A DNA stretch of 43,897 nucleotides, taken from assembly GCA_026329315.1 (NCBI GenBank), contig GCA_026329315.1_4342.1. One strand, written 5' to 3'. Made by a program: the position numbers and the translations under genes. The stretch is from a phage. Below are positions 8,183-42,499 of the stretch, piece by piece. The notes beneath the pieces were generated by a model. That model saw only the letters and a list, made by a program, of their open reading frames with translations. It was not told where the DNA came from and searched no databases. Every line of letters starts with the position of its first letter. Within the stretch, counting starts at the first letter, position 1.

Positions 8183-10521
8183 TATTTAAACCCCGGCGCG
8201 TTTCTTGTGGCCTTGCGGGCCTTGCTAATCTTACTGTTGCTGTTCTGCAAAGATGCAGCAACTTGCTCTTCTATGATGATACGCAGACGGCCTTCATCAT
8301 CCTGCTCGGTGGATACGTTGCCAATCTGACTCGATGTATTATTTACAATGGTAACATTAGATGGGCCGGAAGAAGACCCGTTTTGCCCCATAATTTCTTT
8401 CATCTGCTGCGCGGTGCGCACACGCGATGCGCCAGCGGGCATGATAACTTCGGGTTTACCGCGTTCAGCGATGGTGGAAGCCTGCCCGGCGGATAACTGT
8501 CCACCCTGTTCACGTGCTGACCTGATAGCGGAAATCTGCGCCATACCTGCCCCGACGGCAGCGGCAGCGGCTACAGGGGCCAGGAACGGGCCAACAACAG
8601 GGATAGCAGCCGTTGACTTGTACGCCTCGATAGCTGCGGTGTACGTGGCTATAGTGGCCTGTACGATAGCGAATGCCTTGTACGCACCAGAAGCCTCGCC
8701 CAACGCAGACCCGATGTTTGAAGCCATGTTACCGAAAGCTGTTGCCGTTGCGTCGGCACGCTTGGTTGCGTACTGCTCGTTGATGGCGTTAAGCGCGGCC
8801 TGATACTGCTTCTCGCTAATCAGACCTTGTTCCCGGTACTTATCGGCTACCGCCAGTTTCTGCTGTTCCTGAATATCCAGAAGCTCAAGCTCGGTGGCGT
8901 TCTGGCCCATAATCTGAGCCATGAAATCATCACCTTTCTGCTGCTTCTCCTGGGCTTCTTTCCTTTTCTTGTCCAGTTCTTCCTGGCGGGCCTGTTCGGC
9001 AGAGAGCATAATCTGCGTCTTGGCGTTTTCGTACTGTTGGTCGCTAAGAAGCTTATTGCTATAAAAATCCTGCAACTTAGACAGTTGCTCTTCCTGGTTA
9101 GCTTCTATTTTCTGAAATACGTCATCATTAAGATGGATTGACTGATAGTAGAAGTCTTCCGCCGCCTTTTTCTGGCGCTCGAACGCGTCCGCTGCTTTCT
9201 TAGCGGCTTTTGCGGCTGACCCGTCATCGTCAGAACCGCCGCCGGTTCCGGTTACCTTAAATTTGTTTAACCCCTCAGCTTTTGCGGACTCCTTATCGAT
9301 GTCATACGCCGCGCGTTTTAACGCTACAATATCCTGTTGAGCTTCTACCTGTTCGCGGAAACTTTTACGCGTAACGTCGGCGACATCGCGCTGGGTATCC
9401 AAAGCCATGCCAAGCTGGAAGTTGATATTTTTAGCTACGTCTACTGATTCCCCGGGGGTAAAAGCGGCGCGTACAAGACGGCCAGCGTCCTGAGCACCTT
9501 TAACGATATCTTCAAAAAATCTCTCCATCGCGGTGAACTCTTCCGCGATGAAGTCAAGAGCATCGGCGGCGGATTCAGCGATGGTGGTGGCCGTTTGTTC
9601 TCCGCTATCGGTAATACTCTTGCTGCTGAAATCCCACAGTTCATTAAGCCCGTTGATGGCATCACCAACAAAGCCAAACGCAGCGTCGAATGACATCTCG
9701 ATAGCGCTTCCTACTTCCGACGCTATGTCGCCCCACATCTGCATTTCAGCGGCTAATTCACCGGAAGCAACAGACGCGTTTAATTCCTGGATCAAGTCAT
9801 CGATATACCTGATAGGTTCCGCAAGTGCGCCAACATCAAGACTGGTGGCAAGCGTCATTTTTAGCTGCGACCATGAGTCACTGGCGCTCGCGATAGCGCC
9901 ATTAAGGGTGTTGGCTTGGTCCGCCATGGCACCGGCAAAATTTACGTTACCAATATTAAGTAAATACTGCTCAATATCGGCAGCGCTTTTCTTAACTACG
10001 GTTGTTGTCCCCTGGAATGTAAACTCTACGTCGTTTTTGTTCTGCTTGGCTTTGATGCCGAATTCTTTTAGGCGTTCGAACTCAAACGTACTGGCGTCGG
10101 CTACCGCCTCAATCATCTGATTAAGGTCCTTGCCCATAGCCGATGCGGTATTGCCGTAGGACCGCAACGCCTCCTCGGATGGGGTAAGGCCAAGGGCCAC
10201 CAGCTTACGGAAGCCTTCCACCGCCTGCTCCAGTCCGTATGGGGTATCGCGGGCAAAATCTTGCAGGATACTTAGCGCCTGTTTAGCACCTTGGGTACTT
10301 CCTGTTAAGGTCTTCAAACTGGCGGACATCTTGTCCAGTTGCCGCTGTGAGTCAACCAGTTCTTGGGCAGCTTTATACGCGGTAGCCGCTACGATAGAAG
10401 CAAGGCCTGCTACGGCGGCCCCCGCTACTTTTGCGGACTTTGAAAGGTTGTCAAGACGGTCTGATGTGGCTTTCGCGCCTTGCTCTGTTACTTTTACTAC
10501 TAAACTAGCTACATCAGCCAT
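8182..10521 (-). CDS. tail tape measure protein
   Basis: 779 aa, coiled-coil-rich A/E/Q/K composition, follows chaperone pair. Confidence 0.8.
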   Translation of the reverse strand: MADVASLVVKVTEQGAKATSDRLDNLSKSAKVAGAAVAGLASIVAATAYKAAQELVDSQRQLDKMSASLKTLTGSTQGAKQALSILQDFARDTPYGLEQAVEGFRKLVALGLTPSEEALRSYGNTASAMGKDLNQMIEAVADASTFEFERLKEFGIKAKQNKNDVEFTFQGTTTVVKKSAADIEQYLLNIGNVNFAGAMADQANTLNGAIASASDSWSQLKMTLATSLDVGALAEPIRYIDDLIQELNASVASGELAAEMQMWGDIASEVGSAIEMSFDAAFGFVGDAINGLNELWDFSSKSITDSGEQTATTIAESAADALDFIAEEFTAMERFFEDIVKGAQDAGRLVRAAFTPGESVDVAKNINFQLGMALDTQRDVADVTRKSFREQVEAQQDIVALKRAAYDIDKESAKAEGLNKFKVTGTGGGSDDDGSAAKAAKKAADAFERQKKAAEDFYYQSIHLNDDVFQKIEANQEEQLSKLQDFYSNKLLSDQQYENAKTQIMLSAEQARQEELDKKRKEAQEKQQKGDDFMAQIMGQNATELELLDIQEQQKLAVADKYREQGLISEKQYQAALNAINEQYATKRADATATAFGNMASNIGSALGEASGAYKAFAIVQATIATYTAAIEAYKSTAAIPVVGPFLAPVAAAAAVGAGMAQISAIRSAREQGGQLSAGQASTIAERGKPEVIMPAGASRVRTAQQMKEIMGQNGSSSGPSNVTIVNNTSSQIGNVSTEQDDEGRLRIIIEEQVAASLQNSNSKISKARKATRNAPGFK

Positions 10522-10888
10522 CGTTTCTACCCTCGAAAATAGCGTCTAAGCTCATGATGATGTCGGATTCGAACATCCCTATATTCTGGCCTGAAACGGT
10601 GCTGTACGCCACTAAATCTGACCATCGTAATTGCTCGCGCGGGTACATCTTGATGCCGTCGTCGTCCACTCGGCGGGTGAATTTAATTTCCCTGTACTTC
10701 TCAAATGTGGTTAGTAGCTCAGGGGGGCATTCCGGCCCAGCGGCCTGCGTTGCATCCGGCGCGTCTTGCATAACCCCCATAGCAATTAGCGCGGCTTTAT
10801 GCCCATCGGCGATACTGTCAAATTCCCGCCGTTTGTGGCGGGTTATGAAGTTCCAACGGGCGAACTGGAGCAACGCGTCTACTTTTCC
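10514..10888 (-). CDS. T segment of tail assembly chaperone G-T (expressed by -1 frameshift from G)
   Basis: Open -1 frame overlapping 3' end of G with no ATG of its own; candidate slip site GGAAAAG at 10882-10888. Confidence 0.45.
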   Translation of the reverse strand, partial: GKVDALLQFARWNFITRHKRREFDSIADGHKAALIAMGVMQDAPDATQAAGPECPPELLTTFEKYREIKFTRRVDDDGIKMYPREQLRWSDLVAYSTVSGQNIGMFESDIIMSLDAIFEGRNDG

Positions 10889-11295
10889 TGTAGCTGGTGC
10901 AGTTGTTCGTTATGAAACACAACAACAAGTTCCGCGAGTCGTTTATATTGCGTCAGGAGTGTGTTCAGATTCTCTTTATTGAATTCGTCGTCAAGGCTCC
11001 ACCCGTTAACCAATTCAATCGCTAACTGACGGTTAAGGTCCGTCGCCGCGTCTTCCATCTTCAGGTTGTATTCAGAGAAATCTTTCATCTCTTCGCACTT
11101 ATCACGAAGCGGTTTTAATTTCCCTAATACTGCCCGGTATGCAAGGGTGAACGCGCGCATAGCCTTAACGGCAACGTCCGCCTCAGGAGAAACAACATTA
11201 AGCCATTCCCCGGAATCAGTACCGTCTTTTAGCGGTATCGGCATACGTGCGCCCTTTTCGGCTTCCGCTTCGTAATAAAAATCAGAAAGTTTCAT
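10879..11295 (-). CDS. tail assembly chaperone (G)
   Basis: 138 aa acidic protein directly upstream of tape measure; ATG with AAAGGA RBS. Confidence 0.55.
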   Translation of the reverse strand: MKLSDFYYEAEAEKGARMPIPLKDGTDSGEWLNVVSPEADVAVKAMRAFTLAYRAVLGKLKPLRDKCEEMKDFSEYNLKMEDAATDLNRQLAIELVNGWSLDDEFNKENLNTLLTQYKRLAELVVVFHNEQLHQLQEK

Positions 11296-11402
11296 TCTTT
11301 AATCCTTTGGTTAAGAGGTTACTGGTTAAAGGAAATGCGCCAGACGGGAACCACCCGCTTTTCGTGTGCGACACTAGGCGCAAAATTATTCTAGCACACT
11401 AC

Positions 11403-11431
11403 TTGCACACCCCAATATAATAGCGTACTAT
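11403..11431 (+). promoter_or_regulatory. sigma70-like promoter TTGCAC-N17-TACTAT with embedded palindrome ATAGCGTACTAT
   Basis: Member of conserved class-2 motif TTGCACACCCCAATATAATAG-N-GTACTATTCA; 42 nt upstream of cassette start. Confidence 0.5.
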
Positions 11432-11473
11432 TCACTTACACCAACGATGTTATCTCAAATCAGGAGTTATGTT

Positions 11474-11665
11474 ATGACCGGTATCACTATGTTCTTCTTA
11501 ATTATTTTTGTAGCCGTTTATTTTATCCCGTTTTTGGTGGCACATATGCGTAACCATAAAGCAAAGCTGGCGATATTCATGGCTAACTTATTTCTCGGGT
11601 GGATTCTGTTGCCGTGGGTATTCATTTTAATCTGGGCTTGCAACTCGAACGTGAAAGAGAAGTAG
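11474..11665 (+). CDS. small two-TM membrane protein, superinfection-immunity (Imm)-like
   Basis: AGGAG RBS; two hydrophobic helices; motif NLFLGWILLPWVFILIWA. Confidence 0.45.
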   Translation: MTGITMFFLIIFVAVYFIPFLVAHMRNHKAKLAIFMANLFLGWILLPWVFILIWACNSNVKEK

Positions 11666-11703
11666 GCTACTATAAGACAAATCCTAAACACGAGGAAGTA
11701 AGC

Positions 11704-12834
11704 ATGGCCCAGAAGAAAATAACCGACGAGCAATTACAGGAAGAATTGAACGCCGGGATGAAGAATATCGATATCGCCCGTAAATACGGAATCTCAGACC
11801 GCGTTATCCGAATCCGTAAAGCGAAGCTGGCTAAGAAAGGCGTAGGCCACGGGCGCGACGTTAGTCACCTTGTACCAGACGGTTACAAGATTAAAGGAAC
11901 GTCGTCCCTGGTGGACGAGTTCGGCAACACTAAGTTGCAATGGGTTAAGACCGACGCTGATGCCGAACGTCAGGTTGAATTGATGAAAGCCGTAATAGAG
12001 GGCATGAAGTCAGAGATTACGCCCGTTGCGCCTGTTAAACCGGCACGAGCCAAACGTGACGATAAACTACTCAATCTTTACACGGTATCTGATTTCCATC
12101 TCGGTATGTTAGCCTGGGCTGACGAGAGCGGCGACGACTGGGATATGAAAATCGCGGAGGACTTATTCTCTCGTTGGTTTGATGCTGCGTTTCAGAAAGC
12201 ACCGGATGCAGGTACGGGGGTTATTAATCTTCTTGGCGACTTAGCTCACTTCGATAGTCTTGACGCCGTTACACCGGCGAGTGGTCATGTCCTTGACGCC
12301 GACACGCGTTACCAGAAACTTGTCCGCTACATGATTCGCATGGTCCGCCGTGTTGTTGATATGGCTCTGGTTAAGCATAAAACTGTTCGCTTGCTTATAG
12401 TTCAGGGGAACCACGACGAATCCGGGATGATTTGGCTGGCGGAGATGTTCAGTACGCTGTACGACAATGAGCCGCGCGTGTTCGTCGATACGTCGCCGGA
12501 TGTTTACAAGATGGTGCAACACGGCAAAACGACGCTGTTCTTCCATCACGGGCATAAAGCACGATTCGACGCTATCGAACCGGTTATGATTGCCAAGTTC
12601 CGTAAAGCGTTCGGCGAGAGTGTTTACAGCTACGCCCACGTAGGCCATCTGCACCACCAGAAGATTGTAGAAAGCCGTAACATGATTGTTGAGCAACACC
12701 GCACCTTAGCGGCTAAAGACGCCTACGCCTCTCGCGGCGGATGGATGTCGGGCTGCAGTGCAAATGTAATTACTTATAGCGCCGAATATGGCGAGGTCGC
12801 ACGTTTAACTATTTCACCGGAGATGCTGGGATGA
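11704..12834 (+). CDS. HTH-fused calcineurin-like metallophosphoesterase
   Basis: N-terminal HTH (NIDIARKYGISDRVIRIRKAKL); phosphoesterase motifs SDFHLG, GDLAHFD, QGNHDESG, HHGH, GHLHH. Confidence 0.65.
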   Translation: MAQKKITDEQLQEELNAGMKNIDIARKYGISDRVIRIRKAKLAKKGVGHGRDVSHLVPDGYKIKGTSSLVDEFGNTKLQWVKTDADAERQVELMKAVIEGMKSEITPVAPVKPARAKRDDKLLNLYTVSDFHLGMLAWADESGDDWDMKIAEDLFSRWFDAAFQKAPDAGTGVINLLGDLAHFDSLDAVTPASGHVLDADTRYQKLVRYMIRMVRRVVDMALVKHKTVRLLIVQGNHDESGMIWLAEMFSTLYDNEPRVFVDTSPDVYKMVQHGKTTLFFHHGHKARFDAIEPVMIAKFRKAFGESVYSYAHVGHLHHQKIVESRNMIVEQHRTLAAKDAYASRGGWMSGCSANVITYSAEYGEVARLTISPEMLG

Positions 12835-13319
12835 AAGATATTGTAATTTTCGATTTAGACGGGACATTGGCCGACGGTACCCATCGCTTACACCTGTTAC
12901 CAAAAGATAACTACGGAGAAACGTGGGCGTGGAAGCCATTTAACATGGCCTGCAAAGATGACGCTCCGATATACGACAATATCCATTTGTGTAGCGTACT
13001 GTGGCATTCCGGACTTACTATAATTATCCTTACCGGGCGAAGTGATGACGCTGAGGAGGAGACTCGCGAATGGTTACGAGAGAATAACGTTAGGTTTGAC
13101 ACGCTAATCATGCGCAGCAAACACGACAACAGAAAAGACATCGTAATTAAAGAAGAGGTGTTGCGTGCTTTCGGACTGGAAAGAATCTTGTGTGCGTTCG
13201 ACGACTCTCCAGCGGTAATAAAGCATTTCCGTGACCTCGGCATAACCGCACACGCAGTTACCGAATACGACTGTAACGGGAACTCTACACACTTAAAACC
13301 ACACGGGAGCGATAAATAA
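12831..13319 (+). CDS. HAD-superfamily phosphatase (polynucleotide 3'-phosphatase / nucleotidase-like)
   Basis: DLDGTL motif at N-terminus, ILTGR and FDDS motifs; ATGA overlap with upstream gene. Confidence 0.6.
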   Translation: MKDIVIFDLDGTLADGTHRLHLLPKDNYGETWAWKPFNMACKDDAPIYDNIHLCSVLWHSGLTIIILTGRSDDAEEETREWLRENNVRFDTLIMRSKHDNRKDIVIKEEVLRAFGLERILCAFDDSPAVIKHFRDLGITAHAVTEYDCNGNSTHLKPHGSDK

Positions 13320-13874: not shown

Positions 13875-13880
13875 GAAAAA

Positions 13881-13910
13881 GGCCCCGAAAGGGGCCTTAG
13901 TTTTATGCGT
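13881..13910. terminator. bidirectional rho-independent terminator (GGCCCC-GAAA-GGGGCC)
   Basis: Same stem as the 1785 and 21132 terminators; A-run upstream, TTAGTTTTAT downstream; between convergent genes. Confidence 0.65.
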
Positions 13911-15069
13911 AGGTGATACGTTGAATTACGATAGACGACTGGTACTGATTGCCGGTAGCCTGGCCTTCAATGGACTGAGTGATTGACTCAGGCCCACCAA
14001 TCTCAGGTGTAACCGCCGTAAGCTCTGCACGTTTCAAACTGAAAGACATAGCCCCGTTTACCCCTGCCAGAATAGAGTTAATCTCTACCTGCTGCTCGTT
14101 GATAAACTTCTGAATCATCGCCATGTCGTACAGCTTGCCAGAGATAGAGAATGTGTTAGCTGCGCGTCCACGTTCGACGAACGCCACGCTACTGTTACCG
14201 AGTTCGAACTGCGCGGAAGCTCCGTTGTCGTTGGTGATGGTGAGAGTATCGCAACGCAACGGCGTGGAGCCATCGAACACCGACACATCTACCGACGAGA
14301 ACGGCTCATCGGTGAACGTAACCTGAGAGAAATCAGAGCCAGACGGCGGCGCGGTAAGAATCTCCTGACTCCGGCCGATGAACGGGAAGCTGCCGGTGAC
14401 CATGGCGTTAACCGCCTGCTCTACGGTAAAGCCAGAGATTTCCACACCTTTGGTCAGCATGTACGCGTCCGGGTTACCACACTGGCCCTTGAACCACGTC
14501 AGGATGGAGAACGTCTTACACGCGTTACCGGTTTCCAGCTTGTCGCCAGTTTTTGCGTCAGTGGTTACTGTCTCTGCTGTCAGCGTGTGCTGAATACCTG
14601 CGCCCGTAACTACCAGAGCGGAAACCGCGGTCACGATAAACGGTTTTGCGTTGTCGCCGGTTAAGTCGGTGAACGCAATAAGGTCGCCAACTTCTACACC
14701 GTCAGTAATGAAGCTACCGGCAGCGCGGGTGAATGTTTTACCTGCTGGAGCGACCGTAATTTCGGCACCCGTAATCTCTACCCCATCCTGCCACGTAGAC
14801 GTCATCGCGCCAGCAAGGAAATCATCCTGACTACGGGAGCTAAGTTCGATGGCATACTCCCCGCTAACCTGCTTGTTACCGGTTCGGATGGATGTAGTTT
14901 CACGGCTGCCGTCCAGTTCGTTGGAAGTCAGTGCATCGCGGGTTACAGCGGGAACGCCGCCCGTGTTACGCAACGGCGACCATACCGGGTTAGTCGGTGT
15001 TACGCCAGGGGTAGTTTCCGCCACATAGAATTGCGCGGTATTCGCGCCCTTAAAAGGAGTTGTAGCCAT
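13903..15069 (-). CDS. major tail protein
   Basis: Large structural ORF preceding chaperone/tape-measure block; ATG at 15069 with AAGAGG RBS. Confidence 0.5.
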   Translation of the reverse strand: MATTPFKGANTAQFYVAETTPGVTPTNPVWSPLRNTGGVPAVTRDALTSNELDGSRETTSIRTGNKQVSGEYAIELSSRSQDDFLAGAMTSTWQDGVEITGAEITVAPAGKTFTRAAGSFITDGVEVGDLIAFTDLTGDNAKPFIVTAVSALVVTGAGIQHTLTAETVTTDAKTGDKLETGNACKTFSILTWFKGQCGNPDAYMLTKGVEISGFTVEQAVNAMVTGSFPFIGRSQEILTAPPSGSDFSQVTFTDEPFSSVDVSVFDGSTPLRCDTLTITNDNGASAQFELGNSSVAFVERGRAANTFSISGKLYDMAMIQKFINEQQVEINSILAGVNGAMSFSLKRAELTAVTPEIGGPESITQSIEGQATGNQYQSSIVIQRITYA

Positions 15070-20545: not shown

Positions 20546-20796
20546 GTTTCTCCTTTCTCGATAAGTAAAGCCCCGCCTTAAAGCGGGGCGCTAGTCCTTA
20601 TCATTTAAACATAGAAACGGCGTAATCTCAGTAAACCAGTTACTTTTTACACAAGCAATAGAGTATGGCCCTTCCGAACGCGTCAGCGTAACTACACTCA
20701 GGACTTACGTCCCGCTCCGTTACCTGCCCGCGCCGCGGTCGCTTGTTCATACTTCACAAGCTCAGGTGGAGCTTATCATATTTTTAGTGAAAAGTC

Positions 20797-20812
20797 AACT
20801 ATTCGAATAGTT
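20797..20812. repeat. perfect 16-bp palindrome AACTATTCGAATAGTT
   Basis: Read directly; half-sites match the promoter-embedded palindrome but in everted arrangement. Confidence 0.7.
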
Positions 20813-20864: not shown

Positions 20865-20893
20865 TTGCACACCCCAATATAATAGGGTACTAT
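20865..20893 (+). promoter_or_regulatory. sigma70-like promoter TTGCAC-N17-TACTAT with palindrome ATAGGGTACTAT
   Basis: Near-identical to the 11403 promoter; precedes + strand gene at 20921. Confidence 0.5.
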
Positions 20894-20920
20894 TCAGTTA
20901 ACTTAAGCAGGAGGTGAAAA

Positions 20921-21124
20921 ATGTATGCAATTTGCGAAGTAGTTCAAGAGTTCGATGAAGAGTTCGACGGTGACTTGTGCCGTGTTAAAAAGGTTCTGCA
21001 GGTTTTCCCTGACGCAATGTCTGCTTACAAGGCATTAGATGTATTTGAACCTGGAAGATACGGGGATTATGACACTGTTCTGAGGGTCGTCCACGAGCAG
21101 GATTTAAACACAAGATTCCGTTGA
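20921..21124 (+). CDS. small acidic protein (67 aa), opposite-strand moron
   Basis: AGGAGG RBS, own promoter and terminator, inserted between head genes. Confidence 0.55.
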   Translation: MYAICEVVQEFDEEFDGDLCRVKKVLQVFPDAMSAYKALDVFEPGRYGDYDTVLRVVHEQDLNTRFR

Positions 21125-21131
21125 AAACTAA

Positions 21132-21155
21132 GGCCCCTTAATGGGGCCTTTTATC
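21132..21155. terminator. bidirectional rho-independent terminator (GGCCCC-TTAAT-GGGGCC)
   Basis: GC stem followed by TTTTATC on + strand and TTAGTTTTC on - strand. Confidence 0.6.
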
Positions 21156-21615: not shown

Positions 21616-22691
21616 TATTCCCCTTTCAGATAATCAGCAACACGTTTATCGAGTTCCGCCATCTGCTTAAGCGTGAGCGGATTCCCGAAACCATCTACAG
21701 ATATTACGCGAAACTCTTCCGGCGATATACCGCTGTTACGGAAAATCTTACCTCGCACCGGGCCGAGGGCCTGGTCCTGAAACCACGCCGGTTGTTGTTT
21801 AAGGAACTCGTAGTAAGTGGTGTCTGCGCTTACCTGAGTACCGCCGTCCGCACCCTTAGCCGCACGTTTTGCGCCTTTATCAAGGAAGTCGAACTCTGAA
21901 CTGATTACCGGTGCAGTGGTACTTCGGCAATTAGGATGGGCTGGTGGCATCGGACCTTTACCGATTTCCCACGTCATTCCGTCTCTGGCCCTGCAAATCG
22001 TGCTGGTACGGCTGTCCAAAGTTGACACCCACTCATATTTCTCGATGATGTCGTCGTTCTGGCGGTACGTCTCGTTACGGGCCTCGTTGGATACGTGGGA
22101 CAGCGCGGTGCGGATTACCGTAGTCGCGTTACGTTCTGAGATGTCGGCTAGTCCACCAGCGCCAACAACATTCTTAACAATCTGCCGTGTGGTTTGACCT
22201 TGCACAAAGCCCATCTTAACTCCAGTTACAAGACGTGCTACTTCCGTTTCGCCCCATCCAGACATCAGCTTGGTGAAATCAACGGGCTTGTCGCTCAATG
22301 ATAATGGTTGAAACTCGGCAGCGGCCCATACCTGCTCAGCGGTAGGCGTAACAAATTCCGCGTCTACGTTGGCGGTCAGTGTCTTTACGTTCCACTCAGC
22401 CTCATACGCCGCCAGTTCCTTAAGGTCTTCTGTCAGCTTTGTCTGCCAGTCGCCCGTAAGCCCCACCAGTGCTTCTTCAAGGTCGCGTAACAGTTTATTC
22501 AGTCGCGCGGTGCTACGCCCGTCGTCACCGAATAACAGCACCTGCCGTTTTATTTCGTCCCGCATCTCCTGAATGAACGGTGCTAGGTCTTTCACTTCAC
22601 CAGATGCGGTGCGTTGCAGCCATATCTGATGGCTGATTAGGGATGTAAGTAAGCTCATAGATAAACCCTGTGGCGCTAAAGTTAATAGCAT
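21615..22691 (-). CDS. head morphogenesis protein (Mu F / SPP1 gp7-like)
   Basis: 358 aa ORF directly downstream of portal gene. Confidence 0.45.
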   Translation of the reverse strand: MLLTLAPQGLSMSLLTSLISHQIWLQRTASGEVKDLAPFIQEMRDEIKRQVLLFGDDGRSTARLNKLLRDLEEALVGLTGDWQTKLTEDLKELAAYEAEWNVKTLTANVDAEFVTPTAEQVWAAAEFQPLSLSDKPVDFTKLMSGWGETEVARLVTGVKMGFVQGQTTRQIVKNVVGAGGLADISERNATTVIRTALSHVSNEARNETYRQNDDIIEKYEWVSTLDSRTSTICRARDGMTWEIGKGPMPPAHPNCRSTTAPVISSEFDFLDKGAKRAAKGADGGTQVSADTTYYEFLKQQPAWFQDQALGPVRGKIFRNSGISPEEFRVISVDGFGNPLTLKQMAELDKRVADYLKGE

Positions 22692-22727
22692 ACTATAAGA
22701 AAGCCCCTTTCGGGGCTATAGGTGAAC

Positions 22728-26881: not shown

Positions 26882-27067
26882 TCACCCCGCTATCTCATCA
26901 CCAAGCCACGCCGTTTCTCGAATATCGCCAACCACACAAGCGGCGTGCTCACGGCTAATTGCAAAAATGTAGAAGCTAAACTTCTTCCCGTCGGCGTCGA
27001 TGTGGTAAACCGAGTATGGCTTCCACAGGACGCCATCGATAACTACTGGTTCAGGCGCTTTAGTCAT
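26882..27067 (-). CDS. hypothetical small protein
   Basis: ORF in run of translationally coupled small genes. Confidence 0.35.
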   Translation of the reverse strand: MTKAPEPVVIDGVLWKPYSVYHIDADGKKFSFYIFAISREHAACVVGDIRETAWLGDEIAG

Positions 27068-27826: not shown

Positions 27827-27934
27827 TTCCCAAAAACCCCTTTAGTTTTCAGATTATTGCGATAGAACTGCATCACATGTTCATTATGGAAGTTACTCAT
27901 CTTCTCTACTCCGTTCTCGTTGTCGATGAAGTAA

Positions 27935-27963
27935 ATATAATAGGGTCGAGGATAATAGTCAAC
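27935..27963 (-). promoter_or_regulatory. candidate sigma70 promoter TTGACT-N17-TATATT
   Basis: Read on - strand immediately downstream of the 27994 terminator. Confidence 0.4.
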
Positions 27964-27985
27964 TAGTCATCACAGAAAATAGATA

Positions 27986-30786: not shown

Positions 30787-30817
30787 CTTCTGTCTCTCCT
30801 CTCGTTTGTGTAAATGA

Positions 30818-30846
30818 ATAGTAGCCTATTCTATCCTAGTGTGCAA
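30818..30846 (-). promoter_or_regulatory. sigma70-like promoter TTGCAC-N17-TACTAT with palindrome ATAGGCTACTAT (- strand)
   Basis: Class-2 conserved motif; 32 nt upstream of gene start 30786. Confidence 0.5.
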
Positions 30847-32178: not shown

Positions 32179-32212
32179 AACCCTCACTCCTCTGTCTCGT
32201 TTCGATAGGTGA

Positions 32213-32241
32213 ATAGTATCCTATTATGTTGGGGTGTGCAA
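32213..32241 (-). promoter_or_regulatory. sigma70-like promoter TTGCAC-N17-TACTAT with palindrome ATAGGATACTAT (- strand)
   Basis: Class-2 conserved motif at the head of the leftward arm. Confidence 0.5.
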
Positions 32242-32677
32242 GAGAATAGTTACGTTGCCGTTGTGATTCTTTCGTTTCTTAAAAGAGTACGCAACGCAGT
32301 GGGTGGGCGTTAGCCCACCCCAGCGGAGTGAAGTACTCCCTACCTTACTTACGGCAACTATAGAAACTTTTAATTATCAGTGGCTTAAGAGATATGCTGC
32401 CGATGAGAATAGAGCTTGCCCAGGGCAACCGGGGATACTTACGAAGGAAAGTTAAGATAATTCATATGTTCAGTAATCTGCCGCTTAACACTTCGCTGGC
32501 GCTGGTGCGCCGCTGCGTTTCAAGCGGGTATTACAAGGTGAACAGGAATCAAAGTAACTAAGATATAGAAGCACCTTAAACGAAGATTTTCATAATGTCA
32601 ATATGTGCAATTATGTTTTATTTCCCATTATTCGCAATGTATACTTGGTTTCGTTAACTGATAATGGGGGTTTGAGA

Positions 32678-32848
32678 ATGACGCAGAATGAGGTAGCTGA
32701 GCGTATTGGGGTTACTCGTCGAACGCTGAATAACTGGCTAAAGAGTGGGAAGTTCCCTGATTGCTGTATTCGCATTATGGGCCGTCGTCAGCCAGGTACG
32801 TTTGACCCAGAGAAAGTGGAAGCGTGGATTAAGGAGAACGTGAAATGA
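32678..32848 (+). CDS. AlpA-family HTH DNA-binding protein
   Basis: VAERIGVTRRTLNNWLKSGKFP matches the AlpA/excisionase-like HTH pattern. Confidence 0.55.
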   Translation: MTQNEVAERIGVTRRTLNNWLKSGKFPDCCIRIMGRRQPGTFDPEKVEAWIKENVK

Positions 32849-33136: not shown

Positions 33137-35404
33137 ATGTCCGATGTAATTTTATCCTACTCGTGGTCACGCCGCAACGCGCGGGCGGGGAAAAAGGATA
33201 TAAATGTCAGAACCGCACACACGGCAACACTGGACGACCTGAAAGAGTTAATCCAGCCGCTCGATGCCGTTCGTGACGGGATTAACCCGAAGACAGCGCC
33301 AGGCTATATTACTGCCGCGTGCGACTCTGCGCACAGCACTGTAAAAGACCCGGAAACCGGTGACTTTAAGCAAGCGCGTAAAGGCTTCTTTTATCGCTGC
33401 GATGCGTCTGTAAGCAAATCGTCGCTGGCGTATCTTGACTTCGACAGTGCAACACCGGAAGAGTACCAGGAAGCGGTGCGCCTGGTTAAGCGCAGCCGTC
33501 AGGTTATGTGCCTGTATACCACGGCATCACATACTGATGAGTCACCGCGCTTTCGCGTCGTCATGCCGCTGAGCCGCCCGGTTGAAGGCGGCGACATCAT
33601 CCGTGTTCGTCATGGCTTGCTGGAGCACTTCTTCGAAGGCATGGGCGCTGACCGCAGCGGGTTCACTCTGTCCCAGCCTATGTACCTGCCGCCGGTTGGC
33701 TCTACCGTTATCTGGTCGCGTCGCAACGACCTGATTGACCCGGACGAGTTACTGGAAGGCATACCGGATTACGAGGTGAGCAGCGCATCGGATTACCAGA
33801 TACCGGAAGAACTGCGCTCCGCGTTTACTGATGCGTTCGAAGCGCTGGCGTTCGAGTACGGCGGAGTTATGACCCCACGCGGCCTTAAGATGCCAGCTAC
33901 ACCGGAACACGCTGAAAACTACAGTGACCCGACACCGCGCCCGGACGACTTCCTGCTGTGCTTCCCGCGCGAGGGGTATGAAGCGCCAAACGTAACCATG
34001 ATTCACGACACAGACATTACGGCGACAGAAGGCCTGTCACCGAAAGAGGTGTGGAAGTACGCGTGCGATGCGACCGGGCTGCCGTTCAGTGAAGTCGCAG
34101 AGGCCATCGGTTGGGGGGCGCGTGAATCTGTCTCATGCAGCCTCGACGACCTGGAAGACGACGAGGACTCAGAGGAGGACGAGTTACCGGAGCCGGTAAA
34201 GGCTGATTTCGTCGTTGAGGGGTACATGCCGTCGGATTGTATCTGGGGTATCGTCGGAGAATCGGGCACGTACAAATCATTCTATACGCTGGGGATGATG
34301 TACCTGAGCGCCGCCGGATACCGGTTTGCAGGGGCTGACACCCAGCGTTGTCACCATTTCTATATCGACGGCGAGGGTGGGGCAGCCACACGTACACGTA
34401 TTGATGCGCTCGCGGCTAAATACGGCGAGGAAGGTAAAGATTATGTACACGTCATCGATATGGGCGAAGTCGGCAAACTTAAAAGCCTGATTAAGTTAAT
34501 GCGCGAAACTGCTGGCGACGAGCCAATTGGCATGGTTGCGTTCGACACCCTTAACCAGACCCTGGCACTGACGATTGATAAGTTCGACGAGAACAGTTCA
34601 TCAACAGCAATCGGCATGGGTAAAGTTATCGCCATTCTGAAAGAAGTACGCGATGCAACTAAAGCCGCAGTAGGCGTTGTCCACCATACGCCGAAGGGTG
34701 GAAAGAAAGCACGCGGCAGTGGGGCGCTGTATGCGGGTGTTGACGTGGAACTGACAATCGAACGTGCAACCGACCGTCAGATAAACGTATATCACTCGAA
34801 ATTCAAGCACGGGCCTCAGCAGAAGACGGTTGGCATGGTGCTGGAGTCGGTACAGTTCCGTGAAGCGCCGCCGCCTAAAGAATACCGAGCGGTTGAGTTC
34901 CTGGGTAGCACAGAGGAATACGGCACAATCGTAAACCTGGACCTGCCTGAACCACACAAGGCGCTTGTGTTGATGCCGTGGGGTTTCGAGCCGTTCAAAA
35001 CTGACGATGAGAAAGAGCGGGAAGAAGGGTTGACGAAAGAAGGTAAAGAAAATGTACGTAAAACCGTAGAGAACGCCGTCAACAGTTCGGAGGCCACGAT
35101 ACTCGCGGCGTTTGAACTGGCGGAAGGAACCTACAACGGCAACGAAGGCATCACAGTCGCCGCGGCGAATAAGCTCGCACAGTCAGACCCCAACGCAAAG
35201 GCGTTTAACTCCAAAGAAGCCATAGAACGCGGGAAGATTAAGAAAATGGTTGAGGCCGGGTATCTTGTTCCGGGTACTGACGAAAACAATCAGATAATCC
35301 CAGGTCGTTACAGGCTGAACACCAGAATAACTGATAACAAGATTCCAAAGACAATATACGAACCGAATGAAATGTTGACAGTGACAGAGGAGGATTTGGA
35401 ATGA
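33137..35404 (+). CDS. DNA primase (AEP/prim-pol-like N-terminus) fused to RecA-like P-loop ATPase (primase-helicase)
   Basis: N-terminal LDFD and ASH motifs; C-terminal Walker A GESGTYKS and HHTPKGG region. Confidence 0.55.
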   Translation: MSDVILSYSWSRRNARAGKKDINVRTAHTATLDDLKELIQPLDAVRDGINPKTAPGYITAACDSAHSTVKDPETGDFKQARKGFFYRCDASVSKSSLAYLDFDSATPEEYQEAVRLVKRSRQVMCLYTTASHTDESPRFRVVMPLSRPVEGGDIIRVRHGLLEHFFEGMGADRSGFTLSQPMYLPPVGSTVIWSRRNDLIDPDELLEGIPDYEVSSASDYQIPEELRSAFTDAFEALAFEYGGVMTPRGLKMPATPEHAENYSDPTPRPDDFLLCFPREGYEAPNVTMIHDTDITATEGLSPKEVWKYACDATGLPFSEVAEAIGWGARESVSCSLDDLEDDEDSEEDELPEPVKADFVVEGYMPSDCIWGIVGESGTYKSFYTLGMMYLSAAGYRFAGADTQRCHHFYIDGEGGAATRTRIDALAAKYGEEGKDYVHVIDMGEVGKLKSLIKLMRETAGDEPIGMVAFDTLNQTLALTIDKFDENSSSTAIGMGKVIAILKEVRDATKAAVGVVHHTPKGGKKARGSGALYAGVDVELTIERATDRQINVYHSKFKHGPQQKTVGMVLESVQFREAPPPKEYRAVEFLGSTEEYGTIVNLDLPEPHKALVLMPWGFEPFKTDDEKEREEGLTKEGKENVRKTVENAVNSSEATILAAFELAEGTYNGNEGITVAAANKLAQSDPNAKAFNSKEAIERGKIKKMVEAGYLVPGTDENNQIIPGRYRLNTRITDNKIPKTIYEPNEMLTVTEEDLE

Positions 35405-35598: not shown

Positions 35599-35611
35599 AA
35601 AGAAAGGGGCG

Positions 35612-35827
35612 TCAAGCCCCTTCACCGAACGCCAGCCACTTAGCGTCTACTTCCAGCACTTCCGCCAGTTTAAACAACGTTGCCGGGCGGACGTCCTGAG
35701 TTACACCGAGAGCCAGCTGGTTAATTGCGCTCTGGGAAACGCCGGTCAGGATCGCCAGACGGCGCTGGGAGATGCCGAGTTCTTTACGGCGTTGCTCTAC
35801 ACGGATGCCTAGTTCGGATGGTTGCAT
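35612..35827 (-). CDS. XRE-family HTH transcriptional regulator (Cro/CI-like)
   Basis: RRKELGISQRRLAILTGVSQSAINQL is a canonical XRE HTH; AAGGAG RBS; terminator hairpin at its 3' end. Confidence 0.7.
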   Translation of the reverse strand: MQPSELGIRVEQRRKELGISQRRLAILTGVSQSAINQLALGVTQDVRPATLFKLAEVLEVDAKWLAFGEGA

Positions 35828-35858
35828 GTCAATTACTCCTTAGTCAGTTGATGTGTGA

Positions 35859-35887
35859 ATAGTACCATATTAATTATTTTAGAAAAA
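35859..35887 (-). promoter_or_regulatory. candidate promoter of the XRE regulator, -10 TACTAT inside imperfect palindrome ATAGTACCATAT
   Basis: -10 present but -35 weak (TTTTTC). Confidence 0.35.
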
Positions 35888-35892
35888 GCCCA

Positions 35893-35921
35893 TTGACAAG
35901 TGAATAGTTCGCTATTATAGT
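35893..35921 (+). promoter_or_regulatory. strong sigma70 promoter TTGACA-N17-TATAGT with palindrome ATAGTTCGCTAT in spacer
   Basis: Consensus -35, 17-bp spacer, 5/6 -10; 33 nt upstream of first ORF. Confidence 0.65.
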
Positions 35922-35953
35922 TAGCCCATACCAAACGAGAGGAGAGAAGCAAA

Positions 35954-36103
35954 ATGACCAATAACCGCAAAGCAAAGATTCTGTTAGGCCTTGATATCGC
36001 ATTTGGGGCTAAAGAAACCGCACGATACCGCGTAAGCAACAATCGTGTTGGCTTCTTCGACAAAGCAACAGGCCAGTTAGTTAAAACCGTTAAATATAAA
36101 TAA
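35954..36103 (+). CDS. small basic protein (49 aa, below cutoff), first gene after promoter
   Basis: GAGGAGAG RBS 7 nt upstream of ATG. Confidence 0.4.
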   Translation: MTNNRKAKILLGLDIAFGAKETARYRVSNNRVGFFDKATGQLVKTVKYK

Positions 36104-36118
36104 ACAGGAGAGAAACAA

Positions 36119-36619
36119 ATGTTAGAGAAATTCTTAGTATTACTGGAACGTTTCGTAGTTGCACATGAACTGATTGCCGCAAATAGCGTGAAACAAGTTG
36201 TTCAGGCTTCCGCACCGCTGGAAGTAGAGACGGTAGTGTATGCCAAAGAAGCGGTAGCAGAGTGCGCCGAAGAAAAAGCAAAAGAAATCCCGGTCGAAGG
36301 TGAAGACATCGTTGACGCTAAACCAGCAGAAGAAGAGAAGCCGAAACGCAAGCCGCGTAAAGCTAAAGTAGAGGAGCCGACTCCAGAACCAGAAGAAGAG
36401 AAAGAAGAGGTCGATTACCAGTCTCTTCGTGACCAGATTCAGGCTATCGACGATGCAATTAACGAAGGTCCTAGCGATGCTGCGTGCGACGATTCCGATG
36501 AACTGCTGGAGGAGTTCACCGGTAAGAAAATGAAGATTGCCGCGATTAAAGACGAAGACCTGGCTGAATACCTGAAACGCCTGACGGCGATTAAGAACAA
36601 GTATTTCGAAGAAGAATAA
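36119..36619 (+). CDS. highly acidic early protein
   Basis: AGGAGAG RBS; long E/D-rich stretches with short basic patch. Confidence 0.5.
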   Translation: MLEKFLVLLERFVVAHELIAANSVKQVVQASAPLEVETVVYAKEAVAECAEEKAKEIPVEGEDIVDAKPAEEEKPKRKPRKAKVEEPTPEPEEEKEEVDYQSLRDQIQAIDDAINEGPSDAACDDSDELLEEFTGKKMKIAAIKDEDLAEYLKRLTAIKNKYFEEE

Positions 36620-36661
36620 CTATCCCGCGGCCTTCTGGCCGCTTTAACAGAGGGTCGTAAT

Positions 36662-38516: not shown

Positions 38517-38716
38517 TTCAAGTAAATGAAATGCCGACTGATAAAGATTTTTTGATGGTATGGCACTGGGATGGGTATCTACACTCGGAATCGTTCACGT
38601 TCTTGAACGGTACCATGATGCGATACTACCCTGTAGAGGATGAGTTCGAACCGGCCAATATGCTTAATTTCGAGAACATAATCCCTATTGCAAAATTTTA
38701 TTTGACACCTGAATAG
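38513..38716 (+). CDS. hypothetical small protein
   Basis: GAGGAGGA RBS, ATGA overlap. Confidence 0.4.
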   Translation: MIQVNEMPTDKDFLMVWHWDGYLHSESFTFLNGTMMRYYPVEDEFEPANMLNFENIIPIAKFYLTPE

Positions 38717-38730
38717 TTAGCTATTATAGT
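38702..38730 (+). promoter_or_regulatory. strong sigma70 promoter TTGACA-N17-TATAGT with palindrome ATAGTTAGCTAT
   Basis: Same architecture as the 35893 promoter; upstream of SSB-like gene. Confidence 0.6.
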
Positions 38731-42225: not shown

Positions 42226-42499
42226 GGGCAAAATACAGAAATACGCAAAAGACCGATTCGAGGCCATTGGTGGCCTCGTTCGTAAACTTTCCTACGAAGG
42301 ACGTTCCGGCGCCCCTGACCTGCTGGTAATTCTCCCCGGCGGCGTCATCTGGTTCGTCGAGATAAAGAAAGACGAAAGCACGAAGCCGGATCCACACCAG
42401 TTACGGGAGCACGAGCGGATGCGTAAGCGTGGTGCTAATGTTTTTGTCGTTGGTTCGTTTAAACAGGTTGACGCCCTAATAGCGAACTATTATAGTTAG
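42212..42499 (+). CDS. VRR-NUC domain nuclease
   Basis: GAPDLL ... VEIK motif; GAGGGG RBS. Confidence 0.6.
   Translation: MSTPEGKIQKYAKDRFEAIGGLVRKLSYEGRSGAPDLLVILPGGVIWFVEIKKDESTKPDPHQLREHERMRKRGANVFVVGSFKQVDALIANYYS
42468..42496 (+). promoter_or_regulatory. sigma70 promoter TTGACG-N17-TATAGT with palindrome ATAGCGAACTAT
   Basis: Same architecture as the 35893 and 38702 promoters; lies in 3' end of VRR-NUC gene. Confidence 0.55.

Follow-up and report, generated by a model that had tools for sequence, protein, structure and literature searches.

The divergent region and its two palindromes

The window analyzed here is a 43,897-nucleotide stretch of phage DNA (NCBI GenBank assembly GCA_026329315.1, contig GCA_026329315.1_4342.1) that represents a whole, circularly permuted genome of the genus Kagunavirus (Guernseyvirinae), and the element in question is the control region next to a leftward gene for a small XRE-family helix-turn-helix (HTH) protein of 71 amino acids (aa). 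A gap of 126 bp (35828–35953) separates this gene, on the minus strand, from the next open reading frame (ORF) on the plus strand, which starts at 35954. An earlier note on this DNA had pointed to the divergent layout, to a consensus sigma70 promoter and to two ATAG-N4-CTAT palindromes in the gap, and all three descriptions hold: the rightward promoter, P_R, matches the consensus at 11 of 12 positions, and the palindromes lie at 35904–35915 (perfect, ATAGTTCGCTAT) and 35859–35870 (imperfect, ATAGTACCATAT). Both gain one base per side and are best written as AATAG-N4-CTATT, a dyad with 5-nt arms. The perfect 14-bp copy, which falls in the spacer of P_R, is designated O_R, and the imperfect copy O_L (Table 1). 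P_R would drive a 49-aa ORF, a 166-aa protein, a PD-(D/E)XK nuclease and further genes.

O_L lies across the −10 proposed for the promoter of the XRE gene itself, a promoter whose core is probably the extended −10 element TGgTACTAT. Its TACTAT hexamer is the −10 of four TTGCAC-17-TACTAT promoters and is kept in Jerseyvirus; a promoter scan also returned an alternative, TTCACT(35904)-17-TAAAAT(35876). The imperfect arm of O_L is invariant in Kagunavirus, presumably because the G-to-T mismatch creates the TG of the extended −10. Both operators lie inside the copies of a 25-nt direct repeat (35848–35872 and 35893–35917), which are spaced 45 bp apart.

A putative regulator of the 434 Cro type

The XRE-family assignment was confirmed by Pfam, in which HTH_3 (PF01381) matches residues 11–65 of the 71-aa protein with an E-value of 5.7e-12 (45.9 bits against a cut-off of 23), and by matches to PHROGs "transcriptional repressor/regulator" families. 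Among solved structures the best match is 434 Cro (phmmer, E 1.6e-6, residues 6–68), likewise a protein of 71 aa, and the first Gln of the recognition helix is invariant in an alignment of the protein with 434 Cro and 434 repressor. The AlphaFold 2 (AF2) model, with a predicted local distance difference test (pLDDT) score of 76, contains five helices (5–17, 21–28, 32–39, 48–57 and 63–66); its top Foldseek matches are 1pra, 2cro and 3cro at template-modelling (TM) scores of 0.72–0.75, and the search returns the 434 repressor domain, SinR, 434 Cro, C.AhdI and P22 c2. The predicted structure agrees with the five-helix 434 fold and its helix 2–turn–helix 3 motif. The protein consists of the DNA-binding domain only, without an oligomerisation or S24 autocleavage C-terminal domain. 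Its closest homologs beyond Guernseyvirinae include a 44%-identical protein encoded between CI and CII of the lambdoid Klebsiella phage GZ7, that is, in the cro slot, which together with the 434 Cro match and the predicted fold sustains the Cro/CI-type label originally given to this regulator.

The gene is preceded by a ribosome-binding site, AAGGAG, 9 nt ahead of its ATG. A hairpin at 35603–35623, which probably acts in both directions, parts it from the convergent helicase-primase operon, so that the XRE gene is monocistronic. It occurs across Kagunavirus and Jerseyvirus records, with 51% protein identity between the two genera and 42% identity to the homolog of STP-1, a third Guernseyvirinae lineage. 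Among 37 Kagunavirus copies the ratio of nonsynonymous to synonymous substitution rates (dN/dS) is 0.05, indicating strong purifying selection; this and its broad presence mark the XRE gene as a working core gene, not a decaying relic. Databases name it "transcriptional repressor", "cro", "DicA" or "hypothetical", or leave it unannotated. The K1G RefSeq record (NC_027993.1) annotates neither this gene (33428–33640) nor that of a 56-aa HTH_17 protein (36451–36621); both ORFs are intact.

Two other roles for an HTH protein of this size were considered and rejected. A toxin–antitoxin antitoxin of the HigA/HipB/MqsA type does not fit a monocistronic gene with no toxin partner and with convergent or divergent neighbours, and the match of the 71-aa protein to MqsA falls below the Pfam threshold. 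A restriction-modification controller protein is set aside in the lack of a linked restriction gene. The sole transcriptome for a relative, that of vB_Eco_K1B4 (PMC12645636), was sampled from 5 to 120 min, with genes sorted by a peak at <30 min, 30–100 min or >100 min. The XRE ortholog (_004) was classed there as "middle", and the "early" HTH gene (_008) is the 60-aa ortholog of the HTH_17 protein; the idea that the XRE gene is early was rejected on these grounds.

One dyad at promoters across the genome

The palindrome is not confined to the gap. Nine further copies lie elsewhere in the genome, and the gap appears as one node of a regulon. At no more than one mismatch, AATAG-N4-CTATT occurs at 11 sites in the window (seven perfect, four with one mismatch) against 0.98 expected and a maximum of 5 in 100 shuffles. 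In a census of all palindromes with 5-nt arms and a gap of 0–8 nt, it ranks first in the window with 7 perfect copies, and no palindrome rose above 3 copies in any shuffled window; it likewise ranks first in Salmonella phage Jersey, which belongs to another genus. Eight of the 11 sites are wholly non-coding in a genome with 9.6% non-coding DNA (binomial ~1e-6), the remaining three lie at gene ends, and a start codon follows most sites at a distance of 27–42 nt.

Ten of the sites overlap the −35, spacer or −10 of a predicted promoter; only the site at 22684–22697 is left without an assigned promoter. Among the six best sigma-70 matches in 26–43.9 kb, four bear the dyad, and of six promoters that the Jersey RefSeq record annotates independently, four overlap one. 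The promoters fall into three classes. In class A (TTGACA/G-17-TATAGT; 35893, 38702 and 42468, all plus-strand replication promoters) the dyad fills the spacer. In class B (TTGCAC-17-TACTAT; 11403 and 20865 on the plus strand, 30846 and 32241 on the minus strand) the right arm lies within the −10, and in class C (27962 and 20798, both on the minus strand) the dyad centre TTGA and CT make up the −35, TTGACT. Counting the XRE gene's own promoter with the four of class B, the dyad lies over the −10 in five promoters, over the spacer in three and over the −35 in two. Its position relative to −35 and −10 therefore differs in three ways, with shifts of 6 to 13 bp among classes. The 20770..20803 element, which has a weak −10, is only tentatively a promoter. 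Promoter 11403 would drive an island of superinfection-immunity, exonuclease, polynucleotide kinase (PNK) and deoxynucleoside monophosphate (dNMP) kinase genes, and the class C promoter at 27934..27967 stands after a terminator, upstream of small and packaging genes.

Table 1. Positions of the genes, promoters, candidate operators and terminator discussed in the text (window coordinates).
Feature	Position	Strand	Remark
Class B TTGCAC-17-TACTAT, perfect operator 11419-11432 over −10	11403..11432	+	divergent gap adjoining tail operon
Class C-like TTGACT-17-TAAGCT (tentative promoter), one-mismatch operator 20790-20803 over −35	20770..20803	−	upstream of spanin, scaffold and capsid genes
Class B, perfect operator 20881-20894	20865..20894	+	upstream of lone plus-strand ORF 20921-21124
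One-mismatch site, just past hairpin terminator, portal/minor-head junction	22684..22697	.	kept in three Kagunavirus genomes
Class C TTGACT-17-TATATT, one-mismatch operator 27954-27967 (ACTAGTTGACTATT on minus strand) over −35	27934..27967	−	
Class B, TTGCAC 30846..30841, TACTAT 30823..30818, perfect operator 30817-30830	30817..30846	−	leftward small and lysis genes
Class B, perfect operator 32212-32225	32212..32241	−	start of leftward transcription units
Second small DNA-binding protein, 56 aa, HTH_17/MerR-like	32678..32848	+	Pfam HTH_17 E 2.1e-7
GC-rich hairpin terminator	35603..35623	.	minus-strand scan: 8-bp stem, 5 GC pairs, then T run
XRE/HTH_3 gene, 434-Cro type, 71 aa	35612..35827	−	ORF list and Pfam
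O_L, candidate imperfect operator AATAGTACCATATT (AATAG-TACC-ATATT, one mismatch)	35858..35871	.	minus strand reads AATATGGTACTATT
XRE promoter core, proposed extended −10 TGgTACTAT	35860..35868	−	TACTAT 35865..35860, TG 35868..35867
P_R, rightward promoter, class A, TTGACA-17-TATAGT	35893..35921	+	11/12 consensus positions
O_R, candidate perfect operator AATAGTTCGCTATT (AATAG-TTCG-CTATT)	35903..35916	.	in P_R spacer
First rightward ORF, 49 aa	35954..36103	+	variable slot, no HTH
Class A TTGACA-17-TATAGT, perfect operator 38712-38725 in spacer	38702..38730	+	upstream of single-stranded DNA-binding protein and DNA polymerase genes
Class A TTGACG-17-TATAGT, perfect operator 42478-42491 in spacer	42468..42496	+	upstream of g56, Dcm and helicase

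Conservation of the sites in relatives

Among 37 Kagunavirus loci from IMG/VR, O_L and O_R are both retained in all 37 with their arms unchanged, and the 4-bp centre takes six forms at O_R and three at O_L. Both hexamers of P_R are invariant in these loci, the −10 in Jerseyvirus too, and the ortholog of the 38712 site is retained in 30 loci, once more with several centre variants. Columns that vary in more than one sequence are confined to three stretches: from the −35 to the dyad, the dyad centre, and downstream of the −10; the arms and hexamers have none. Pairwise divergence of the gap is 0.043 against a synonymous divergence (dS) of 0.27 in the adjacent XRE gene, about 6-fold lower. A scan of IMG/VR for the class A operator together with its −10 returned essentially the same Kagunavirus contigs, plus scattered chance-like matches.

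The wider set of sites shows the same behaviour. Three other complete Kagunavirus genomes carry sites at the orthologous promoters, the imperfect ones with the same mismatch, and six sites of Jersey are orthologous to sites of the window. Sites at orthologous promoters are kept in four genomes and across two genera. The mismatch of the 27954 site is identical in the three Kagunavirus genomes and in Jersey. The Jersey orthologs of the 38712 and 42478 sites fall inside promoters annotated in the Jersey record, and that of the 32212 site overlaps another.

From their conservation and placement the dyads appear to behave as operators and not as polymerase signals. The class A arms are invariant even though they lie in a spacer that sigma-70 does not read, and the position of the dyad shifts from class to class; a bound protein that occludes the promoter fits this better than promoter recognition does.

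The distance between O_L and O_R is 44–46 bp in Kagunavirus; in Jersey an 11-bp insertion brings it to 55 bp. This adds roughly one turn of the helix, which suggests that the two sites may need to lie on the same face.

A model for graded repression

From the gene, its fold family, and the sites with their positions, conservation and excess over chance, we infer that the XRE protein binds these sites, represses by binding them and has a temporal role. Our favoured model, held with moderate confidence, is that a single autoregulated Cro-type repressor controls a genome-wide regulon of about 11 sites, with no CI/Cro bistable switch. The 71-aa protein, a Cro-type member of the phage 434 family, would most likely bind AATAG-N4-CTATT as a dimer. 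A dimer on O_R, filling the spacer of P_R, would block RNA polymerase and repress the rightward operon, and binding to the weaker O_L, over the protein's own −10, would cap its level through negative autoregulation. The same operator on about nine other promoters would extend repression by this protein to host-polymerase transcription throughout the phage genome.

The distribution of site quality suggests how such a system may be graded. Perfect operators are found at the replication, early-leftward and accessory-island promoters, and one-mismatch operators at the XRE gene's own promoter and at the packaging and head sites (27954, 20790 and 22684). As the weak O_L would hold the protein level down, occupancy would be high at strong sites and lower at weak ones, and shut-down would proceed in a graded, Cro-like fashion as the protein accumulates, the early and replication promoters being repressed first and hardest and the late ones least.

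The interpretation in the earlier note thus holds in part. The perfect palindrome does occupy the P_R spacer, the classic position for a repressor, but the region is not a lysogeny-type two-repressor switch: the locus encodes one HTH protein with no CI-like partner. That note favoured a regulator of the lytic programme, which is still the likeliest reading, with its part in timing presumed.

Alternative explanations

On sequence grounds, the XRE protein is the likely binder of the dyad. The 56-aa HTH_17/MerR-like protein encoded by the first gene of the helicase-primase operon is a second candidate; the operators would then be real but bound by this protein, and the XRE protein would regulate locally or regulate something else. 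HTH_17 is found in 443 phage records, only of Kagunavirus or Jerseyvirus type, the two genera that share AATAG-N4-CTATT, and in STP-1 both the HTH_17 gene and the exact AATAG-N4-CTATT, which was looked for there, are absent. Its ortholog is "early" in vB_Eco_K1B4 (PMC12645636). We nevertheless consider this explanation unlikely. A 56-aa protein made of a single winged-helix unit with no dimerisation element is a poor fit to a symmetric 14-bp dyad; K1G, whose HTH_17 copy is 71% identical and has PM in place of RR where the putative recognition helix begins, retains nine sites (at most one mismatch); and STP-1, which has no HTH_17, still shows a promoter-linked dyad, ATTAS-N4-STAAT, beside its 42%-identical XRE protein.

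A role of the HTH_17 protein as an AlpA/Q-type antiterminator was rejected on the basis of size, site symmetry and the varying position of the dyad. Hallmarks of the Q/AlpA type are an N-terminal ring inserted into the RNA exit channel, an asymmetric element at a set position within the −35/−10 interval, and sigma-dependent pausing. The AlpA structure paper describes a far larger protein of eight helices with an N-terminal ring and DNA-contact residues 128–142, bound as a monomer to the 6-bp asymmetric sequence GGGACG.

Several points weigh against the XRE protein as a genome-wide repressor. HTH_17 is 87.5% identical between the two genera, against 51% for the XRE protein, and the operator is the same in both, a pattern of conservation that suits a shared site better in the case of HTH_17. 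The recognition helix of the STP-1 XRE protein has a similar start (TQSAI vs SQSAI) and the dyad there is different; moreover, the STP-1 dyad was defined post hoc and is only modestly enriched (9 sites for an expectation of 3.8; six occur in promoter contexts, with the three geometries known from the window), which makes it only suggestive. The promoter assignments are all consensus matches, and the argument for graded affinity comes from only four imperfect sites. A repressor acting at head and packaging promoters as well would be a strange arrangement in an obligately lytic phage. The vB_Eco_K1B4 transcriptome, with its "middle" XRE ortholog, is coarse and neither supports nor refutes early shut-off. 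Finally, a literature search found no binding, footprint, transcription-start or mutant study in Guernseyvirinae, and no paper on operators, promoters, a regulon or the function of the XRE gene.

Another explanation accepts repression by the XRE protein and differs in its purpose: the regulon would serve dormancy, with every promoter silenced and the unintegrated genome persisting in a carrier or pseudolysogenic, non-integrating "temperate-like" state. Operators on essentially all transcription units do resemble the dispersed operators of prophage repressors such as P1 C1, L5 gp71 and phiC31 c; the XRE gene stands alone between its own promoter and a terminator, opposite to its neighbours, as an immunity gene might; and a superinfection-immunity gene lies under an operator-bearing promoter. 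A complete Kagunavirus genome is also filed in PLSDB as a circular 44,086-bp "plasmid", pC16EC0033-2 (CP088689.1), from a Korean Escherichia coli blood isolate, with the XRE gene and all operators intact. This record is weak evidence for repressor-maintained dormancy and may reflect a carrier culture, contamination or true persistence. It could be explained by co-culture on a receptor-variable host, which PMC3990542 reports for K1 phages.

Most of the evidence on lifestyle points away from dormancy. In agreement with the earlier note, no integrase or partition gene was found in the window, nor a protelomerase gene, whether by homology mapping to an annotated relative, in Pfam or in PHROGs, and the 71-aa protein is Cro-sized with no CI-like C-terminal domain. 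Neither a set of 5,426 complete E. coli genomes nor one of 185,579 species-representative genomes yielded a prophage match, and in none of the clusters checked in a 15-billion-protein collection was the XRE protein found on a contig longer than ~45 kb; the lack of long contigs and of prophage matches effectively excludes integration. Published descriptions of these phages all say lytic, and a search of the literature on pseudolysogeny in these genera found nothing. Dormancy as the purpose of the regulon is accordingly improbable in our estimate, and we are equally doubtful that Kagunavirus and Jerseyvirus carry a one-protein silencing system that holds the unintegrated genome silent in some cells and renders them superinfection-immune.

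The least probable explanation, to which we give very little credence, is that the dyad is a by-product of promoter architecture with no dedicated regulator, arising from divergent −10-like elements or from a signature read by host polymerase or a host factor: the class B right arm CTATT does belong to the −10 TACTAT, reverse-strand TATATT or TATGTT with GGGG flank three class B sites exactly where genes run both ways and are degenerate at 30817, and the STP-1 arm (STAAT) and −10 (TAATAT) change together, but the class A arms are invariant within the spacer of unidirectional promoters in a long plus-strand operon, the class B left arm reads CGCTAT, CCCTAT and the like on the other strand and, without the essential TA, forms no −10, and polymerase cannot read as a fixed element a dyad whose position shifts among classes. 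Bidirectional −10 symmetry as the source of the dyad was rejected for the class A sites and the class B left arms. We know of no E. coli regulator with this consensus, and none of the familiar host sites considered (the TrpR CTAG dyad, ArgR, CRP, Fur, Cra) appears to fit the dyad.

Gene organization and further observations

The 5.6 kb surrounding the XRE locus are 98% identical to Escherichia phages BEU33 and BEU35 and match 445 phage records, nearly all of them Kagunavirus or Jerseyvirus (Guernseyvirinae). A gene map was made by mapping the 76 annotated proteins of a close relative, fEg-Eco06, onto the window. The rightward replication module on the plus strand extends from 32678 to the end of the window and resumes at its start; a long leftward series on the minus strand comprises small, lysis, packaging, head and tail genes and contains two small plus-strand islands. 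Host-type promoters are the only kind in these phages, and no late activator is known.

Strong GC-rich hairpins stand at each point of plus/minus gene convergence: that at 13879–13898 was reported on both strands, and those at 21130–21150 and 35603–35623 on one strand only. If the convergence hairpins terminate both ways, leftward late transcription must restart past each plus-strand island. For the tail operon (11296–11473) no match to a promoter consensus was found. On the opposite strand of the class B elements that lie between divergent genes (11403–11432, 20865–20894 and 32212–32241), a −10-like hexamer (TATATT or TATGTT) stands directly before GGGG, arranged as in class A; the element at 30817 faces no gene on its other side, and there the hexamer–GGGG is degenerate or missing. 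Judging by this arrangement, the three elements may be bidirectional promoters sharing one operator, and could supply the otherwise missing promoters of the tail, head and helicase-primase operons.

Within the first slot of the rightward operon, the 49-aa ORF belongs to a PHROGs family of unknown function; nothing significant was found in Pfam, and no HTH was found. This slot (35954–36103) is mosaic, being occupied by other small ORFs in some relatives and absent in many, and the mosaic switch-over falls a few bases ahead of the start codon, in the final bases of a leader that is conserved apart from these. The helicase-primase operon is preceded by a 450-bp non-coding stretch (32226–32677) with several hairpin-forming inverted repeats. 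It was searched for iterons or repeats that might be separate sites for the 56-aa HTH protein, with nothing convincing found, and an Rfam scan of 30.6–36.2 kb at E up to 1, gap included, gave no match; the stretch may be a long leader, or it may hold an origin or a small gene or RNA that has escaped annotation. In STP-1 (OR526487.1) the helicase-primase block (9970–13161) is inverted relative to Kagunavirus, the XRE homolog leads the helicase-primase operon in the slot that HTH_17 holds in Kagunavirus, and GGATTAST occurs in the spacers of both divergent promoters.

Two further genes are of note. A 61-aa ORF on the minus strand (26882–27067) is 98% identical to a fEg-Eco06 protein annotated "RNA polymerase inhibitor, similar to 2LMC_A" (T7 Gp2) and has no Pfam match; an inhibitor like Gp2 would be unexpected for a phage with an apparently complete dependence on host polymerase. 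The first gene of the island under class B promoter 11403 (11474–11665) is of the T4 Imm superinfection-immunity type (Pfam Imm_superinfect, E 1.3e-13). Jersey carries in a plus-strand island under an operator-bearing promoter an annotated anti-repressor (Ant-like) gene (14352–14963), typical of Jerseyviruses, and the window has a dNMP kinase gene in its place.

Implications

Guernseyvirinae are among the commonest E. coli and Salmonella phages used for therapy, food biocontrol and engineering, and are deemed "strictly lytic". Their "repressor" gene has been ignored or, as in the K1G reference record, left without annotation; elsewhere it has been flagged as marking lysogeny. Should the XRE protein prove to be a core, genome-wide regulator of lytic growth, calls on lifestyle and safety would rest on mechanism and not on the name of a gene. 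A single graded repressor, if the model is correct, would be a simple way to order expression with host-type promoters, and the 14-bp operator could serve to tune payload expression in engineered phages. The BASEL phages Bas70–76 are members of the group that grow on E. coli K-12 derivatives, which makes the prediction directly testable.

Comparison with known systems

The closest parallel is phage 434. Its Cro is the best solved-structure match to the XRE protein, with the same length of 71 aa, the five-helix fold and the recognition-helix Gln. The 434 operators are 14-bp dyads (ACAA-N6-TTGT) with conserved outer bases and a sequence-free centre, and the dyad of the window is also 14 bp long, with invariant outer arms and a variable centre. 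The operator sequence is different, however, and rather than heading the rightward operon, the XRE gene reads leftward from a promoter of its own; it has no CI partner and is accompanied by about 11 dispersed sites in place of six clustered ones. More generally, the locus resembles the lambdoid O_R region in that an HTH repressor gene diverges from a strong, presumably early rightward promoter, operators lie over both promoters, and the weaker site is on the regulator's own. It departs from the lambdoid switch in having one HTH gene with no antagonistic second repressor, two sites 45 bp apart centre to centre instead of three adjacent ones, no CI-type cooperativity or S24 autocleavage domain, no integrase and no sign of bistability. 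None of the marks of a temperate phage (an integrase, a partition system or protelomerase, or prophage copies) was found for the phage of the window.

The number of sites recalls a second group of repressors. P1 C1, mycobacteriophage L5 gp71 with its "stoperators", and phiC31 c, which acts at conserved inverted repeats, each use many dispersed sites per repressor, and here too many copies of one operator are found at promoters. Those phages form stable lysogens, whereas no prophage was found here and descriptions of this group are of lytic phages; unlike the dyad of the window, the sites of P1 and L5 lack symmetry. SinR and the restriction-modification controller (C) proteins, for example C.AhdI, have the small XRE fold as well; they autoregulate, as the XRE protein would, through a strong dyad and a weak one ahead of the gene, which gives a timing delay. 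In the window, by contrast, there is no linked restriction gene, the sites are genome-wide and nothing points to an activating site.

Cro-like genes are present in other lytic phages that have no integrase. In virulent cos phages of Streptococcus thermophilus, such a gene is reportedly left from a lost lysogeny module. The virulent Staphylococcus aureus phage SA97 keeps a cro-like gene that has been treated as a remnant (PMC4632378). Phages of the SA97 type share with the window a lytic lifestyle, a Cro-type HTH gene and the lack of an integrase; they differ in that the XRE gene described here is a core gene, with a dN/dS of 0.05 and conserved sites throughout the genome.

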